Source: a virus (lineage: Duplodnaviria > Heunggongvirae > Uroviricota > Caudoviricetes). From it: a stretch of DNA of 64,000 nt. The stretch is taken from IMG/VR virus record IMGVR_UViG_3300021426_000007, positions 1-64,000 of that record; one strand, given 5' to 3'. The notes beneath the pieces are model-generated. The model saw nothing but the letters and a program-made list of their open reading frames with translations. It did not search any database and was not told the DNA's origin. Within the stretch, counting starts at the first letter, position 1. Every line of letters begins with the position of its first letter. Made by a program: the position numbers and the translations under genes. Shown piece by piece: positions 5,705 through 20,462 of this stretch.

Positions 5705-5786
5705 TGCCGGAGAGGGGACTCGAACCCCCACGGATTTCTCCTTCAGATTTTAAGTCTGACGCGCCTGCCAATTACGCCACTCCGGC
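5705..5786 (-). tRNA. tRNA-Leu (anticodon TAA), long variable arm
   Basis: Manual fold of the reverse complement: acceptor GCCGGAG/CTCCGGC, anticodon stem-loop TCAGA-CTTAAAA-TCTGA, T-loop GGTTCGAGTCC, extended variable arm. Confidence 0.75.
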
Positions 5787-5976
5787 TTGTGCGCTTGCCG
5801 CTTAGATTGTCACTCCGTTCAACTCTACGGTTGCGTCCAATCCAGGGTTGGTTACCATCTACCACCATTACGTTGTCCCCATATCGCCGGACCTACCTGG
5901 CAGTTTTCAGCGACCATTATCATTCTCTGTGAGGTGCTGCGCTAACGCTCACATCATCCGGGCGCGACCCGGCCTC

Positions 5977-6071
5977 TGGCGGAGTGACTGAGACTCGAAC
6001 TCAGACACGGATGTTCCTCCGTTACTCCTCGATTAGCAATCGAGTGCCTTACCAATTAGGCTTACCACTCC
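5977..6071 (-). tRNA. tRNA-Ser (anticodon GCT), long variable arm
   Basis: Manual fold: anticodon stem-loop CTCGA-TTGCTAA-TCGAG, T-arm CTGAG-TTCGAGT-CTCAG, 3' CCA encoded. Confidence 0.7.
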
Positions 6072-6078
6072 ATATAAA

Positions 6079-6152
6079 TGCTGTCGGTTGGACTCGAACC
6101 AACGATCGCCCGATTATAAGTCAGGAGCTCAAACCATCTGAGCTGCGACAGC
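6079..6152 (-). tRNA. tRNA with anticodon TAT (Ile, AUA-reading)
   Basis: Canonical cloverleaf: acceptor GCTGTCG/CGACAGC, D GCTC/GAGC, anticodon stem CCTGA/TCGGG loop CTTATAA, T GTTGG-TTCGAGT-CCAAC. Confidence 0.7.
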
Positions 6153-6449
6153 ATGTAATACTCCGGGGAAGACTCGACTCGTTCCACTGCCGCCAGAAGC
6201 GACTACTCTACCATTTAAGCTACCGGAGTATACGTGTGTGGGATTTCGGACATACCTTCACCCACGCGGCTTTGTTGTTTCATCCCGCGACTCTACTGGG
6301 AGCCAGCTGCCATGGGGCCGAAAGGAGGTGGGGGTTCGCGTACCCACCAGCGAAAAGAACAGAGCCAGTTATTACTTCTCGCTACCATGATTACCAAAAA
6401 TACCTGACTGCCATTGGACTTCGCGACAAGTCCGGCGATGACACATAAA

Positions 6450-6521
6450 CAGAGCCGACAGGATTCGAACCTGTGATGGAGGAGTCAAAGTCCTCTGTGT
6501 TACCGACTACACCACGGCTCT
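6450..6521 (-). tRNA. tRNA-Gln (anticodon TTG)
   Basis: Acceptor AGAGCCG/CGGCTCT, anticodon stem GAGGA/TCCTC loop CTTTGAC, T-arm ACAGG-TTCGAAT-CCTGT. Confidence 0.7.
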
Positions 6522-6526
6522 AGATA

Positions 6527-6545
6527 CGGGTGGGATATCCCACCC
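6527..6545 (-). terminator. hairpin GGGTGGGATATCCCACCC downstream of gene 6553..6798
   Basis: Perfect 7-bp stem inverted repeat between gene end and tRNA cluster. Confidence 0.4.
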
Positions 6546-6552
6546 ATGGAGC

Positions 6553-6798
6553 TTAGATATCGATGACTACATTCTCGAACTTCTTATATGCGTCGAGGTA
6601 CGCTCTGTGCTTATCCCCATCGTAAGTAAGCTCGTAGTACATACCATCGTGAAGATCAGTACTCAATAAGTACTTGTAGTTCTGTAGAACCTTGCACTTC
6701 CACACGATGTAGACATGGTAGTACGGAGCTGGATCCGATGCGTCAAGATGCTTATCCACATACTCCCGGACAATCAGCTTTGCTTCAAAATCATTCAT
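6553..6798 (-). CDS. hypothetical protein (81 aa)
   Basis: ORF track; 4-nt overlap with upstream gene. Confidence 0.5.
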   Translation of the reverse strand: MNDFEAKLIVREYVDKHLDASDPAPYYHVYIVWKCKVLQNYKYLLSTDLHDGMYYELTYDGDKHRAYLDAYKKFENVVIDI

Positions 6799-7376
6799 TC
6801 GAGATCACCGAAGGACGCATCAGCAGACTGAGCAGCACCACCAAGAGACTCGCCATCCCTGGTCTTAATCACATTACCAAGGCTGACACCGATGCCCTTG
6901 TTCCCATTCTTGTTATACGGGAAGAAGTTCAGACACACTGCGCCATAGCAGCCGGAATAGAACTTCTCCTCATCAGCCGGATACATCAGGCTGTCCTCCA
7001 GGTACATAACCTTCGGGGCATAGGTGTTGCTTGCGTTGAGGAACATTGAATCCTCATAGGCCGGATCACCTTCACGGTCGATGTCGCCATCGTGCAGAGG
7101 GTTCTTAAACTTCGGAGGAAGTTTATTTGCTGGCCAGAATCCCTTCTCAACACCCTTTGCAATGGCAGCATCAATACCAGCATTGACAAGCTTGAGGGAC
7201 TCTTTGTTATCGTTAGGAATGATAATCGAGGCGGAGTACTTTGCTACCTCGCTACCTTCCTGCTGATACGGTTCGAAGACTCTGGCAAAAGAAAACCGGA
7301 TCTCACCGATTCTGATCTGCGTACCGTCCGCATTAAATACTTTGTTGTAGTTCATAATGTTTAATACCTCATACAA
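6795..7376 (-). CDS. putative ssDNA-binding protein (DUF2815-like)
   Basis: IRFSFARVFEP-type motif and its position next to the PD-(D/E)xK exonuclease, the typical phage DUF2815/DUF2800 pairing. Confidence 0.45.
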   Translation of the reverse strand: MYEVLNIMNYNKVFNADGTQIRIGEIRFSFARVFEPYQQEGSEVAKYSASIIIPNDNKESLKLVNAGIDAAIAKGVEKGFWPANKLPPKFKNPLHDGDIDREGDPAYEDSMFLNASNTYAPKVMYLEDSLMYPADEEKFYSGCYGAVCLNFFPYNKNGNKGIGVSLGNVIKTRDGESLGGAAQSADASFGDLE

Positions 7377-7378
7377 AT

Positions 7379-8593
7379 TCAGTCATCTTGTTTAGAATTA
7401 TTGACGTTATCTATATCAGCGGAGTCCTCTACTAGATCTCCGAATGACAGTTCAGCGGGTGAGTACTCTTCTCTCTTGTCCGACTCTGGTACTAGCGAAA
7501 GCGAACCCTCACCCTGGAAGACGAACTTTCCAACCAGCGCATCGAACGCTGACTTCTTTAGTGTCTTCTCCAATTCTGCTACGCTCTTCAACTTCGGAGC
7601 AGTGAAGTACTGCTCCTCTGTGTACCCTGCCCTTGAAAGCTGATTGATTACTTCCTCTTCGTTCCGCCACACTCGGCCAGGGCGCTTACCTCTTACCAGT
7701 TTGTATCCTCTCCATCGCTCTCCATCCATGGCTCTGGAGTACACATAGGCCTTAACATTTTTTATCCAGTCCTCAGCTTGGTCTAGGTAGGGGAGCATGT
7801 CGTTTATTCGATCATCGGATATCACATCCGGTGAGTCGAACATGTTCTCCAGTACCTTCAGAGAGGTGAGAACATTCTCTCGGCAGATAGCTTTGACATT
7901 ACAGAACCTGCACCAGTCTCCGCTGTGGAACTCTCCCTCACCCTTCCATGCTAGCTGAGCGGCTGGCTTTATAACCTCATTCGCCCAGCAGAGCAGGTCC
8001 TCGATCTGAAGAATCTCCTCCGTAATGGAATCCAGGCGTGGCTGAATGATTACCTCTTTGACCTGACGGATATCATACAGATCCCGCACGGCAGCATACG
8101 CACCAAGCGCATAGAGCCTAGCCTGGTAGTTCTCTACTGCCGAAACAGGTACGCCCTTGCCATGTTTATAGTCTAGTACGATCAATCCGCCTTCGAACAC
8201 GATCATGGCATCCGATGTACCGAAGCACTCTGGCACCCACTCCGACATATCCAGTCGTTGCTCGATATAAAGCTGGGCTGAGGGATCAATCTTCCTTGCC
8301 GCGAACAGTTCCGTAAGAACAACATCGACATAATCGTCTGTCGCCCTGTCCATCTCACTTGGAATATCGCCGAGAGCTTTGAGCTGTTCCTTGTAGTTGA
8401 AGTCATTAATCTCTCCGTTCTCATGACGGAGTTTTAACTCTGCAACAGAATGGGCGAGGGTACCTTCTGTGGCATACTCAGAACCCTTGTCTCCAAACAG
8501 AGCACTGTACTTCTGATTCAACCTGCCGGATGGAGTACAGGCCACCCACCTTTTAGCTGCGGAAGGGGGGAGTGGCGCATGCTGGGATGGCAT
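7379..8593 (-). CDS. PD-(D/E)xK nuclease, Cas4/RecB-like phage exonuclease (DUF2800-like)
   Basis: D..E-GGLIVLDYKHGKG nuclease core and C-terminal CRFCNVKAIC cysteine cluster. Confidence 0.65.
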   Translation of the reverse strand: MPSQHAPLPPSAAKRWVACTPSGRLNQKYSALFGDKGSEYATEGTLAHSVAELKLRHENGEINDFNYKEQLKALGDIPSEMDRATDDYVDVVLTELFAARKIDPSAQLYIEQRLDMSEWVPECFGTSDAMIVFEGGLIVLDYKHGKGVPVSAVENYQARLYALGAYAAVRDLYDIRQVKEVIIQPRLDSITEEILQIEDLLCWANEVIKPAAQLAWKGEGEFHSGDWCRFCNVKAICRENVLTSLKVLENMFDSPDVISDDRINDMLPYLDQAEDWIKNVKAYVYSRAMDGERWRGYKLVRGKRPGRVWRNEEEVINQLSRAGYTEEQYFTAPKLKSVAELEKTLKKSAFDALVGKFVFQGEGSLSLVPESDKREEYSPAELSFGDLVEDSADIDNVNNSKQDD

Positions 8594-9090
8594 TATCCAA
8601 GCTCCTTCAGCTTCTGCATAACCTCGCCGTATCTGCTGGCAGGGATAGCGGAGAATCCATCGACATCAAAGTTCTCTTTAATCCATTCCTTCGCGGAAGA
8701 GATCTTCCCATCCATCCGAGCTTTTTGAATAGCCTTCTTTACGTCAGCCATCTCATACTTGGATTCCTCCACTTTTGTTTCCTCTTCCACCACTGGGGCG
8801 GGATCCTGCACCACGGACTCCGGTTCCTCGAACTTCTCATCCTCAGCTACTGGAGGGTTGAACTGCACGATCTCTGTGGGCTGGGTTATAATGGACGTTA
8901 CGTCCTCACCGAGCACACCCTGTATCTCTGCGATAACATTAGCGAAGTAGAGGAACCGCTCGATGCTCATAAGAAGTGTTCCGTATTCATTCGACCGAGG
9001 ATCCGTCTCCGGAATAAGATGAATGAGACGTTCGAACTCAGCCATGTTGAACTTCGTCGCTCTGATTTGTTCTACCTGTTCTTGATCCAT
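8593..9090 (-). CDS. hypothetical protein (165 aa, acidic)
   Basis: ORF track; start codon overlaps stop of the upstream gene. Confidence 0.5.
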   Translation of the reverse strand: MDQEQVEQIRATKFNMAEFERLIHLIPETDPRSNEYGTLLMSIERFLYFANVIAEIQGVLGEDVTSIITQPTEIVQFNPPVAEDEKFEEPESVVQDPAPVVEEETKVEESKYEMADVKKAIQKARMDGKISSAKEWIKENFDVDGFSAIPASRYGEVMQKLKELG

Positions 9091-9105
9091 ATCTTTTCTC
9101 CTAAA

Positions 9106-10218
9106 TCATTCTCCGTAGTGTATGAGGAAGTCCGGGTCAACAGCCTTAAAGGACTGCGTACCGTCCAGGCTTCTGCATACTAAGCCTTCTCTATTAATAT
9201 CTGCCAGTCTGCTGGGACCATGCGCGAGGGTGATCATCTCTTCCACAGTCTTCGGAAGATATCCTGTCCCAATAATCGGAACCCAGGTAAGACCAAGCGG
9301 TTCAAGGAGGAGCTTCCCATCTGCCGATGCCCACCTTCCATCTCGGCTCGAGATGAAGTTGAACACGTACAGCTCCGGTTCGGTTCTCTTGTACTTGTTG
9401 CCTTGAATACCTGGCCCGATGACCTCACCCTGGATGCAGACCCAGTCACTCTGAAGGGAATTGCACAGGCCGATGAGTATCTGCTCCAGACCATACTTCT
9501 TCCACACTCTCCAGTAGGAACTGTTGTCCGGTTTACTCAGCCGGATATTCCGAGAGCAGACAAATGTTTCGAACTTCGGACCCCACACTTTATTGGTACG
9601 CTTCACGGCAAAGGTTCCGCTCTGGCCGTCAACCTTCTCAGTCATACACCATTGCTGGTCCTTATCCAGATACCACGGAGCATTCTGAATCCGGGTCTCA
9701 TCTGTCTTACTTACGAATTCCGGAAAGCATTTCCGTACTTTCTTAGGAAGCAGCCATTTGCCTAGCCACCCACGGAAGAATGGCTTCCTCAGTAGCCGGA
9801 GCAGCCATGCCGGATACTTCTTACTCGGTTTCTTAGACAGCAGATCTTCAACACAGTCTGTAGCATCCGGTCTTTCCCACTTTGTAATGCCGAGAATCTC
9901 TGTAACATCATCACCTTCAGATACCTTGGTTCCTACAGGAAGAATCGAGAGGGGGAAGGCAATACCCTGACTCAGACATCCGGCCATCTTCATTGTCTTG
10001 ATGCGTTTGTCTTTCAGGAAAGAACACCACTCAGCATCCGGAAGGATCGAGTCAATTTCACAGAAGACAACCAGATCGCCCGCATGGATGTCAGACTTCT
10101 GAACAATAACTGTCCACCCATCTATGTGGGCCAGTGCAATACGATCCCTGTTATGGATGTCATCCACCTTGCTAACTCGTCTGATTGTCGCCAGTTTTCT
10201 CTCAGCCATTGCCTTCAC
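9106..10218 (-). CDS. ATP-dependent RNA (or DNA) ligase, KxDG nucleotidyltransferase
   Basis: Motif I MTEKVDGQSGTF (KxDG) plus Rnl-like N-terminal region. Confidence 0.55.
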   Translation of the reverse strand: MKAMAERKLATIRRVSKVDDIHNRDRIALAHIDGWTVIVQKSDIHAGDLVVFCEIDSILPDAEWCSFLKDKRIKTMKMAGCLSQGIAFPLSILPVGTKVSEGDDVTEILGITKWERPDATDCVEDLLSKKPSKKYPAWLLRLLRKPFFRGWLGKWLLPKKVRKCFPEFVSKTDETRIQNAPWYLDKDQQWCMTEKVDGQSGTFAVKRTNKVWGPKFETFVCSRNIRLSKPDNSSYWRVWKKYGLEQILIGLCNSLQSDWVCIQGEVIGPGIQGNKYKRTEPELYVFNFISSRDGRWASADGKLLLEPLGLTWVPIIGTGYLPKTVEEMITLAHGPSRLADINREGLVCRSLDGTQSFKAVDPDFLIHYGE

Positions 10219-19514: not shown

Positions 19515-19910
19515 TTATCTGTTGTACCTAGTCATGAATGATCTTGCGGTCTGGTCGAGGTGACACATGTGCATTGTGGTTGTGATGCCCCAGCGTCTAC
19601 TTGATTCCGCATCCCATGAGTCCTTTATTCCTTTCGCCCACTCGGCTGCCTTGGGGGAGATGCGTCCATCCCATGCGCTCTGATTGACAAGGGAAGCGAT
19701 GATGATTTCCGCAAAGCTTTCGCCGCACATTTCTGCGAAGGCATCCACGACAGACTCCGGTGTATCGTTGTCGTAGACGGCATCTGCATGAAGCTTGTCG
19801 AGCAGGGCGCAGGCATCACGGCATTTCTTTCTGTACTCACGATAGATATCCGCACCGATATCCTGTACCTTCTGCAGGGTTTCTATTGTTCTCATTTCTA
19901 TATCCTCCAT
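19515..19910 (-). CDS. hypothetical early protein (131 aa)
   Basis: ORF track. Confidence 0.5.
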   Translation of the reverse strand: MEDIEMRTIETLQKVQDIGADIYREYRKKCRDACALLDKLHADAVYDNDTPESVVDAFAEMCGESFAEIIIASLVNQSAWDGRISPKAAEWAKGIKDSWDAESSRRWGITTTMHMCHLDQTARSFMTRYNR

Positions 19911-20012: not shown

Positions 20013-20462
20013 TTAACAATATGCAACTAGGTCCGGTCTTCCGTTTCTGATGCATGCGTCCTGCCGGTGCAGGATAGCAAGCTCGGATAGTTCTTTTGCT
20101 TCTTTCCATTCTTCCCAAGGTAGCCAAGCTACAGGCAATGGGAGGCCGAAGAATTCGTCAGCCTTGGTTTTCATCTCATCAAGACGGTCGTATTCTTTTT
20201 CATCGTAGGGGATTTCTCCGATGTCCATGTCGTCCATGGTGTTGAAGCAGACATTTCGTATCAGTTTAAAGTTGTGCTGGTTCTTGTAGGTGTTGAAGGG
20301 GTACAGCTTCTTGATGCTGACTATGCGGTAGTTCCGGTCCTTACATTTCTGTATGTTCTCCGCCCTCTTCTCTTCAGATTTCGGATAGCATACTTTGATG
20401 GTCTCATTGCCGTCCTCCGTAGGTACGGCATACTTGAATTCCCATTTCTGTTCTTTCTGCAT
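20013..20462 (-). CDS. hypothetical early protein (149 aa)
   Basis: ORF track. Confidence 0.5.
   Translation of the reverse strand: MQKEQKWEFKYAVPTEDGNETIKVCYPKSEEKRAENIQKCKDRNYRIVSIKKLYPFNTYKNQHNFKLIRNVCFNTMDDMDIGEIPYDEKEYDRLDEMKTKADEFFGLPLPVAWLPWEEWKEAKELSELAILHRQDACIRNGRPDLVAYC

Follow-up and report, generated by a model that had tools for sequence, protein, structure and literature searches.

The locus studied here raises the question of what fills the 190-nucleotide (nt) spacer between the tRNA-Ser and tRNA-Leu genes of a phage transfer RNA (tRNA) cluster. The cluster lies in a 64,000-nt stretch of tailed-phage DNA, positions 1 to 64,000 of IMG/VR record IMGVR_UViG_3300021426_000007, which we call the window. 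An initial annotation, made from the letters of the sequence, had seen tRNA-like fragments in this spacer and had read the cluster, together with a nearby RNA ligase gene, as a defense against host anticodon nucleases. We find that the spacer (5787–5976, minus strand) is occupied by a conserved pseudoknotted RNA, here called the trailer RNA, which belongs to a widespread structured family with no description in Rfam 15 or in the literature that could be searched. From its sequence and its position we propose, at a probability of roughly 0.4, that it is a cis-acting candidate for forming the 3' end of the upstream tRNA, most likely by self-cleavage.

A conserved pseudoknotted RNA in the Ser-Leu spacer

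When the tRNA cluster was compared with its relatives by blastn, the 65 nt past tRNA-Ser were seen to recur at two places in the related viral locus L002, both immediately behind a tRNA, and a single time in a scaffold of a human faecal phage. IMG/VR was then scanned with two independent patterns, one taken from the first hairpin and one from the strings AAUGAMAAYG...GCUGAAAAC, and the scans gave at least 100 distinct instances in viral contigs, mostly those of gut and rumen phages, and a second conserved block, GACAAUCUAAGC...AAG, lies downstream of the first and is set off from it by a variable insert of 10–91 nt. The elements range in length from 111 nt (the compact copy in locus L218) to 190 nt (the window), and the family layout is CCA/G-NN-P1-linker-P2-AGAAUGAMAAUG-P3(5')-UGAAAAC-P4(variable)-GACAAUCUAA-P3(3')-AAG-pseudoknot strand, where the slash marks the end of the tRNA and the last strand folds back to pair within the loop of P2. 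The parts of the window copy, in the order in which they would be transcribed, are as follows:

5787–5976, minus strand: the pseudoknotted "tRNA-trailer" RNA, 190 nt, filling the whole Ser-Leu spacer (88.9 bits with covariance model R1, of which the window copy is a seed)
5957–5973, minus strand: P1 hairpin, GCCGGG / loop UCGCG / CCCGGA, starting 3 nt past the CCA
5928–5953, minus strand: P2 hairpin, UGUGAG...CUCACA, with a small hairpin and the pseudoknot 5' strand GCGC (5939–5942) in its interior
5915–5927, minus strand: J2/3, GAGAAUGAUAAUG, a mostly invariant single strand in alignment A2 (family consensus AGAAUGA(C/A)AAUG)
5910–5914, minus strand: P3 5' strand, GUCGC, pairing with 5797–5801
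5903–5909, minus strand: J3/4, UGAAAAC, invariant in A2
5812–5902, minus strand: P4 insert, branched in the window and variable (10–91 nt) across the family
5802–5811, minus strand: J4/3, GACAAUCUAA, near-invariant in A2
5797–5801, minus strand: P3 3' strand, GCGGC, from covariation and RNAalifold
5787–5796, minus strand: AAG, the pseudoknot 3' strand GCGC (5791–5794) and a 4-nt linker to G1 of tRNA-Leu

Alignment A2 was made with MAFFT from 31 representatives that are at most 90% similar, with the variable insert trimmed, and three helices, P1, P2 and the long-range P3 (NNNGC with GCNNN), were proposed on it. Across P1–P3, 94.5% of the alignment cells are paired, compared with 31–44% when the partners are slid by 1–3 columns, and compensatory changes on both sides are present at 12 of the 17 pairs; none of 500 shuffles reached the observed values. 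P1 has such changes at all six of its pairs while its loop retains an invariant GC, and the long-range P3 is paired in 98% of cells with double changes at three pairs. Unguided RNAalifold prediction returned the same P1, P2 and P3, with P2 and P3 extended.

Past the AA(G/C) next to P3 stand bases that complement the P2 loop in its 3' part; the pairs of the resulting pseudoknot vary by lineage (GCGC/GCGC, UCGGCUU/AAGCCGA, CCGUCU/AGACGG, GAGCAG/CUGCUC, AUCAGCU/AGCUGAU and CGCGG/CCGCG). In an alignment-free test the cognate strands gave a mean duplex energy of −8.4 kcal/mol and non-cognate strands −4.8 kcal/mol, with none of 5000 permutations as good as the true pairing; the value for the window duplex is −8.1 kcal/mol. 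Between the helices A2 has about 35 invariant or near-invariant unpaired bases. One subgroup (window 5812–5902, minus strand, and loci L084, L135, L209 and L210) carries an optional conserved sub-motif, CGUAAUGGUG, within P4.

Covariance model R1, built from A2, finds a single copy in the window and, outside its seed, matches L002 (59.1 and 58.5 bits), L005 (45.5 bits) and L384 (60.4 bits). Among 80 viral loci related through the DUF6275 gene, R1 places the trailer RNA in L002 (two copies) and L005 only. The L002 copies (6629–6759 and 6834–6971) form a subtype in which P1, P2, J2/3 and the pseudoknot are kept, and P3 (CCGAG/CUCGG) encloses a different domain of 45–55 nt instead of the UGAAAAC / GACAAUCUAA loop. 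A scan of genome-assembly contigs found the full motif in 8 of 120 stretches, the rest being mostly chance matches; full copies are on small contigs assigned to Oscillospiraceae, Lachnospiraceae, Lawsonibacter, Ructibacterium and Eubacteriales, and to two Bacteroidales bins. The copies on Clostridia-assigned contigs thus indicate phages of gut Clostridia, and the window, which resembles no deposited phage genome in its DNA sequence, probably derives from a tailed phage of gut or rumen Clostridia.

Searches of existing collections returned no counterpart: neither the window copy nor the compact L218 copy matches any Rfam 15 family at E ≤ 10, the motif strings are absent from 1.4 Mb of theta-ribozyme supplementary data and from the part of the files of a human-microbiome RNA catalogue that was scanned, and keyword searches of the literature were also empty.

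Position at tRNA 3' ends and comparison with known RNAs

Among the matches listed, to which all counts of neighbors in this and the next section refer, 61 of 100 distinct instances have an ARAGORN tRNA whose end lies 48–62 nt upstream of their AAUGA signature, with a mode of 53–56 nt, and the element therefore starts 1–3 nt past the tRNA end. In the window its first base (G+1, position 5976) directly follows the CCA at 5977–5979, the 5' edge lying within ±5 nt of the tRNA 3' end. The junction reads CCA/G in at least 59 instances and CAA/G in 20, and CCA is encoded by 29 of the 30 tRNAs that precede the element, compared with 152 of the 192 tRNAs that lack the motif (Fisher p = 0.02). We considered an encoded CCA as a mark of motif-linked tRNAs and set the idea aside: the window and L002 conform to it, yet the tRNAs of these phages commonly encode CCA in any case. 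In compact locus L218 the 111-nt element exactly fills the gap from the CCA of tRNA-Met to G1 of tRNA-Leu. Most of the remaining instances, which have no ARAGORN tRNA upstream, follow non-tRNA RNAs that end in an acceptor-like stem plus ACCA. Downstream partners are more diverse: a tRNA starts 7–10 nt past AA(G/C) in 17 of 94 instances, a Shine-Dalgarno sequence and an open reading frame (ORF) follow in 11 of 94, and other structured RNA follows in most of the rest.

Many loci (for example L100, L107 and L254, downstream of 7285 in the last) contain RNAs of ~95–110 nt with a tRNA-like acceptor stem and ACCA, GCGGCAUAGGUGCCCCGUAAGGGG...GCAGGGCAGGACUGCAAUGCCGCACCA. They have no canonical T loop and no ARAGORN call, and they alternate with the trailer RNA in arrays.

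The same genomic position is held by theta ribozymes, minimal ribozymes of the HDV (hepatitis delta virus) type that lie at the tRNA 3' ends of gut Caudoviricetes and self-cleave in vitro (Kienbeck et al. 2024, PMC10879173). Like them, the trailer RNA of gut phages shares the strand of a phage tRNA and starts a few nt past its 3' end; as with theta phages, some of its phages have Bacillota hosts, and the window also has a ligase of the DRB0094 family, which is enriched there (PMC10879173). The two RNAs differ in architecture, theta ribozymes being ~55 nt long with helices P1, P2, P3 and P1.1 (PMC10879173), whereas the trailer RNA has 111–190 nt, two local hairpins, the long-range P3 and a pseudoknot from loop to 3' tail. 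They also differ in their tRNAs, only 4.5% of theta-linked tRNAs encoding CCA (PMC10879173) as against the 29 of 30 given above, and in that self-cleavage is shown for theta whereas for the trailer RNA it is a prediction. The theta descriptor, P1-J-P2-ACC-U-CC-NCGY-GGU-P1'-GG-L4-CUAA-P2' (PMC10879173), cannot fit the trailer RNA, because the bases past G+1 form a hairpin with a 5-nt loop that covariation proves. For the nested double pseudoknot of HDV (P1-P2-P3-P1.1-P4), in which P1 begins at G1 and has its partner 3' of P3, this local hairpin leaves no room for P2 and P3, and that fold was rejected. HDV-family Rfam models gave no match to the trailer RNA at E ≤ 10, and comparison by eye found neither the theta L3/P1.1 strings (ACC U CC NCGY GGU ... 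GG) nor the CUAA with its catalytic C in A2.

The hatchet ribozyme (RF02678; PMC4604424, PMC6561176) has a hairpin at its 5' edge and is cleaved at the base of that hairpin. The trailer RNA likewise has a 6-bp hairpin at its extreme 5' edge (P1 is 5–6 bp across the family and begins 3 nt past the CCA; hatchet P1 is 3 or 6 bp) and a 5-bp helix, closed by the 3' end, around an internal loop and a variable hairpin. It also shares short strings with the hatchet Ht-1 construct, namely UGACAA ahead of the helix, UG behind it and, before the 3' strand, an A-rich ...UAA(AA). It differs from hatchet in the extra P2 hairpin, the pseudoknot and the ~9 nt between P1 and the CAA-like bases; its CAA-like triplet (C/A/U-A-A) stands ~45 nt further on, the linker past P1 is different, whereas in hatchet three conserved bases, CAA, join P1 directly to P2, and of the bases conserved in hatchet L2 (UGGG, GCAG and AAA) UGGG and GCAG are absent from A2. 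The RF02678 covariance model gave no match at E ≤ 10 on window positions 5780–5990 or on the compact L218 copy, and we treat the resemblance as a lead only.

Fits by hand to an HDV-like fold, a hammerhead core, a C/D-box or k-turn and the conserved regions of RNase P (AGAUGAAUGAC / ACAGAAC) were all rejected: covariation proves P1 to be a local hairpin, the strings of the core are different, and Rfam gives no match. Drum RNA (RF02958) is, like the trailer RNA, a structured RNA of unknown function inside a phage tRNA cluster (locus L389), but its consensus and structure are unrelated, and Rfam detects drum in L389 and not in the window element. At L389 17770–17918 the drum RNA (91 bits) is directly followed by an abiF RNA (52.7 bits) and tRNA-Tyr, and that phage carries a ligase homologue.

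How the trailer RNA may act

In the reading to which we give the probability of about 0.4, the trailer RNA would fold as soon as it is transcribed and act in cis, a cut at the A/G junction would set the tRNA 3' end exactly past the encoded CCA, and the element would be set free when host RNase P cuts at the 5' end of the tRNA that follows. Two considerations lead to it. A stable hairpin that begins 3 nt past the CCA would block 3' exonucleolytic trimming, which we infer favors an endonucleolytic cut at the junction; and in bacterial tRNAs that encode CCA, RNase Z normally makes no clean cut directly past it. On both counts an endonucleolytic cut at A/G would be the simplest way to a mature tRNA-Ser, and a self-cleaving RNA its simplest source. 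Cleavage at the RNA's own 5' edge is common to the HDV-like theta ribozymes and hatchet (PMC10879173, PMC4604424). We also count in favor of this reading that self-cleaving ribozymes are already present in the lineage, with one pistol ribozyme in the window and three in L384, and that unrelated gut phages have theta ribozymes for this task, at the very position of the trailer RNA. The window pistol (RF02679, 19925–19996, minus strand) scores 51.5 bits against a gathering score of 34.5 and lies between the ORFs at 19515–19910 and 20013–20462; those of L384, the closest relative, lie at 1654–2656. A more specific proposal, which we hold as no more than tentative, is that the trailer RNA would be a new class of self-cleaving ribozyme that cuts exactly past the encoded CCA of phage tRNAs and tRNA-like RNAs, a second and independently evolved answer to the task of the theta ribozymes that may in addition position the next tRNA for 5' processing.

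Several observations weigh against cis-acting 3'-end formation. Catalysis is inferred throughout, and the trailer RNA matches no known self-cleaving class, with no Rfam 15 match at E ≤ 10 and no fit to the theta descriptor. Its four helices, pseudoknot and roughly 35 invariant bases make the trailer RNA larger and more conserved than hatchet or theta, as might be expected of an RNA that binds a protein or ligand or that acts in trans. A few instances follow tRNAs without CCA (L214 and L261) or non-tRNA RNAs, and the 3' end of the element sits precisely beside the following tRNA, a fit that formation of the upstream 3' end does not need. After the proposed cut the CCA would bear a 2',3'-cyclic phosphate that has to be removed before charging, and no enzyme for this was recognised in the window. 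The single-sequence folding-energy z-score of the gap 5787–5976 is an unremarkable +0.53; that of the other gap is −0.55, and both values are uninformative.

Some of these points would be explained if the trailer RNA were instead a stable small RNA, or part of a ribonucleoprotein, that acts in trans after release by tRNA processing, its 3' end made by RNase P at the next tRNA and its 5' end by the host 3'-end nuclease acting on the upstream tRNA, with its function elsewhere, for example in host takeover or in the binding of a phage or host protein or metabolite. Both ends of the element do abut tRNA ends, and the ~35 invariant unpaired bases, the pseudoknot and the optional P4 sub-domain CGUAAUGGUG resemble features of larger functional RNAs. 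Other orphan RNAs are known from phage tRNA clusters, such as the drum RNA in L389, and the tRNA cluster of T4 holds small stable RNAs. The arrangement is, however, asymmetric: a tRNA or CCA-ended RNA is almost always upstream, whereas of the 94 instances only the 17 have a tRNA downstream, and 11 a ribosome-binding site with an ORF. The reluctance of RNase Z to cut cleanly directly past an encoded CCA also speaks against a 5' end made in this way, and we regard a trans-acting product, though the main rival, as rather unlikely.

A third possibility, which we consider improbable, is that the trailer RNA serves as a leader with a cis-regulatory or protective role: once separated from the tRNA, its structured 5' end would stabilise or gate whatever RNA lies downstream (tRNA, tRNA-like RNA or mRNA), possibly in response to a ligand. 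The 11 instances that immediately precede a Shine-Dalgarno sequence and a start codon, their pseudoknot strand being ~10 nt away, agree with this, and the invariant junctions are as elaborate as those of an aptamer. Against it, the downstream partners are heterogeneous, there is no terminator and no sequestering alternative structure, and the strict registration is with the upstream CCA and not with any downstream feature.

The tRNA cluster, the RNA ligase and the meaning of the locus

The other features of the cluster and the ligase gene are listed below; a tRNA was accepted when ARAGORN called it and its Rfam RF00005 score was at or above the gathering score of 29 bits.

6449–6522, minus strand: tRNA-Gln(UUG), ARAGORN, Rfam 68.1 bits, no encoded CCA
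6230–6448, minus strand: 219-nt spacer between tRNA-Gln and the decayed tRNA, ~80% identical to L002 6353–6557 (blastn and alignment)
6159–6229, minus strand: degenerate tRNA-like element, Rfam 26.6 bits (below 29), no ARAGORN call
6078–6153, minus strand: tRNA-Ile(UAU), ARAGORN, Rfam 59.3 bits, no encoded CCA
5977–6071, minus strand: tRNA-Ser(GCU), ARAGORN, Rfam 52.0 bits, CCA encoded at 5977–5979
5705–5786, minus strand: tRNA-Leu(UAA), ARAGORN, Rfam 61.4 bits, no encoded CCA
9106–10218, minus strand: Rnl5/DRB0094-type RNA ligase in the replication module, with a KxDG motif (EKVDGQS)

The four tRNAs that the initial annotation had placed on one strand are all called by ARAGORN on the minus strand with Rfam scores of 52.0–68.1 bits against 29, and the TAT anticodon of the tRNA it had placed at 6079–6152 is confirmed, the ARAGORN limits being 6078–6153. 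The cluster is an ordinary phage cluster of four functional-looking tRNAs, and tRNA-Ser is the only one of the five (four tRNAs and the tRNA-like element) with an encoded CCA. Within the phage's own genes, the share of AUA among Ile codons is 13% in early and 18% in late genes, that of UUA among Leu codons is 6% and 14%, respectively, and the commonest Arg codon is AGA. Supplementation of late-gene translation by the phage tRNAs is compatible with these codon shares; the effect is small, and the idea is plausible but weak.

The tRNA-like fragments claimed for both gaps are real in one of them: the acceptor-like ends at 6158–6233 belong to the element at 6159–6229, whereas the gap 5787–5976 contains none and is the complete trailer RNA copy. 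The 6159–6229 element has a 5-nt anticodon loop and a T arm disrupted by a bulged T stem, and its acceptor and D arms are homologous to those of a sound tRNA(UAU) in the relative L002; for these reasons it is probably a decaying tRNA gene, and because of its 26.6 bits and the lack of an ARAGORN call it is not filed as a tRNA. Its loop can alternatively be read as Arg-UCU on a 4-bp anticodon stem. The cassette order in L384 and L002 is Gln, spacer, tRNA(UAU)-CCA plus trailer element, (...), Leu. In the window the corresponding tRNA(UAU) is without CCA and decayed, and a different tRNA-Ile(UAU) and then tRNA-Ser-CCA now stand upstream of the trailer element. The comparison suggests exchange of tRNAs at the CCA/element junction.

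A scan of viral contigs with a 16-nt pattern from the 6230–6448 spacer returned the contig of L002 and chance matches only, and a permissive scan found no Rfam match in it. Several hairpins rich in GC lie in this spacer; one of them, GGACUU-GUCGCG-AAGUCC, has a loop similar to that of P1 in the trailer RNA. A perfect hairpin without a U tract, GGGUGGGAUAUCCCACCC, lies at 6527–6545 between the DUF6275 stop codon and tRNA-Gln, with a similar hairpin at the equivalent place in L002 (6255–6273), and may be a processing or pause site.

The cluster adjoins a minus-strand replication and recombination module that encodes an SNF2 helicase, a family A DNA polymerase, DUF6275, an Enc34-type single-stranded DNA-binding protein, a DUF2800/PD-(D/E)XK nuclease, the ligase and an SPFH protein, and terminase and portal genes follow on the plus strand. 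Phage-borne transfer-messenger RNA genes were seen in two of the DUF6275-related loci (L017 222–565 and L040 2427–2755), and L040 also has a tRNA with a UUA anticodon, which ARAGORN reports as "Stop" (suppressor-like).

The ORF at 9106–10218 (minus strand) does carry the MTEKVDGQSG motif noted at first, and the question of RNA versus DNA ligase is answered in favor of an RNA ligase. It matches the N-terminal OB module PF21189 (4.9e-23) and the RNA_ligase domain PF09414 (9.5e-17), its best solved relative is the Naegleria gruberi RNA ligase NgrRnl (E = 1.5e-40 over both domains), and against TIGR02306 (RNA_lig_DRB0094) it scores 122.4 bits, under the equivalog cut-off of 151.15. On these grounds it is predicted by domain architecture to be of the Rnl5 type, as a divergent member: it shares the N-terminal OB, the adenylyltransferase domain and KxDG with DraRnl of Deinococcus and with NgrRnl, and differs from them in falling below the TIGR02306 cut-off. 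The ligase of L384 is 91% identical to it.

Does this enzyme repair tRNAs? The initial annotation had proposed a T4-like defense in which the ligase reseals tRNAs cleaved by anticodon nucleases and the phage tRNAs replace depleted ones. The enzyme is truly an RNA ligase, the window phage, like T4 with its Pnkp and Rnl1, has both tRNAs and an RNA ligase, and a tRNA-linked structured RNA and a DRB0094-family ligase occur together in the window; this ligase family is reported to be 140-fold enriched in gut phages with tRNA-linked theta ribozymes (PMC10879173). Anticodon nucleases, however, leave cyclic phosphate and 5'-OH ends. The Rnl5 clade, which is not that of T4 Rnl1, seals 3'-OH/5'-PO4 nicks in duplexes (PMC1807946, PMC5397189), substrate ends unlike those products, and no Pfam or NCBIfam match to an end-healing enzyme such as a Pnkp-like kinase-phosphatase was found among the ~40 ORFs of the window, where small or novel ORFs could escape such a search. 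Nor is the ligase syntenic with tRNAs in relatives. Among 14 ligase-bearing viral loci, 10 have no tRNA within flanks of up to 10 kb; in L037 and L051, loci free of tRNAs, the ligase homologue stands beside DUF6275 in the same replication module, and L002 has kept its tRNAs and has no ligase within 6 kb on either side. None of the 140 motif loci among the matches listed has the ligase in its flanks. T4-style repair is unsupported given the missing healing enzyme, the 10 of 14 ligase loci (and L037 and L051) without tRNAs and L002 without a ligase, and we consider it very unlikely. A functional link between ligase and tRNAs is not supported. They are probably independent of each other, and for the ligase a part in the replication/repair module appears at least as likely as tRNA repair. 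The locus thus gives reason for caution in reading "tRNAs plus RNA ligase" as repair of the T4 type when the ligase is of the Rnl5 type and lies among replication genes.

The value of the locus lies rather in the overlooked Ser-Leu spacer, whose RNA is positioned like a theta ribozyme and yet is unrelated to theta. To our knowledge few natural classes of self-cleaving ribozyme are known, and most of these are without a clear biological role. The formation of tRNA 3' ends by the theta ribozymes of gut phages is one of the few roles that have been proposed (PMC10879173). The 111-nt form in L218 is a compact candidate for a direct cleavage assay. Should the trailer RNA not cleave, it would still be a widespread orphan RNA in the tRNA arrays of gut phages, highly conserved and with both ends determined by the processing of tRNAs; should it prove to act as proposed, a second, unrelated and more elaborate RNA would stand at the theta position, and phages would have repeatedly recruited structured RNAs for tRNA maturation.

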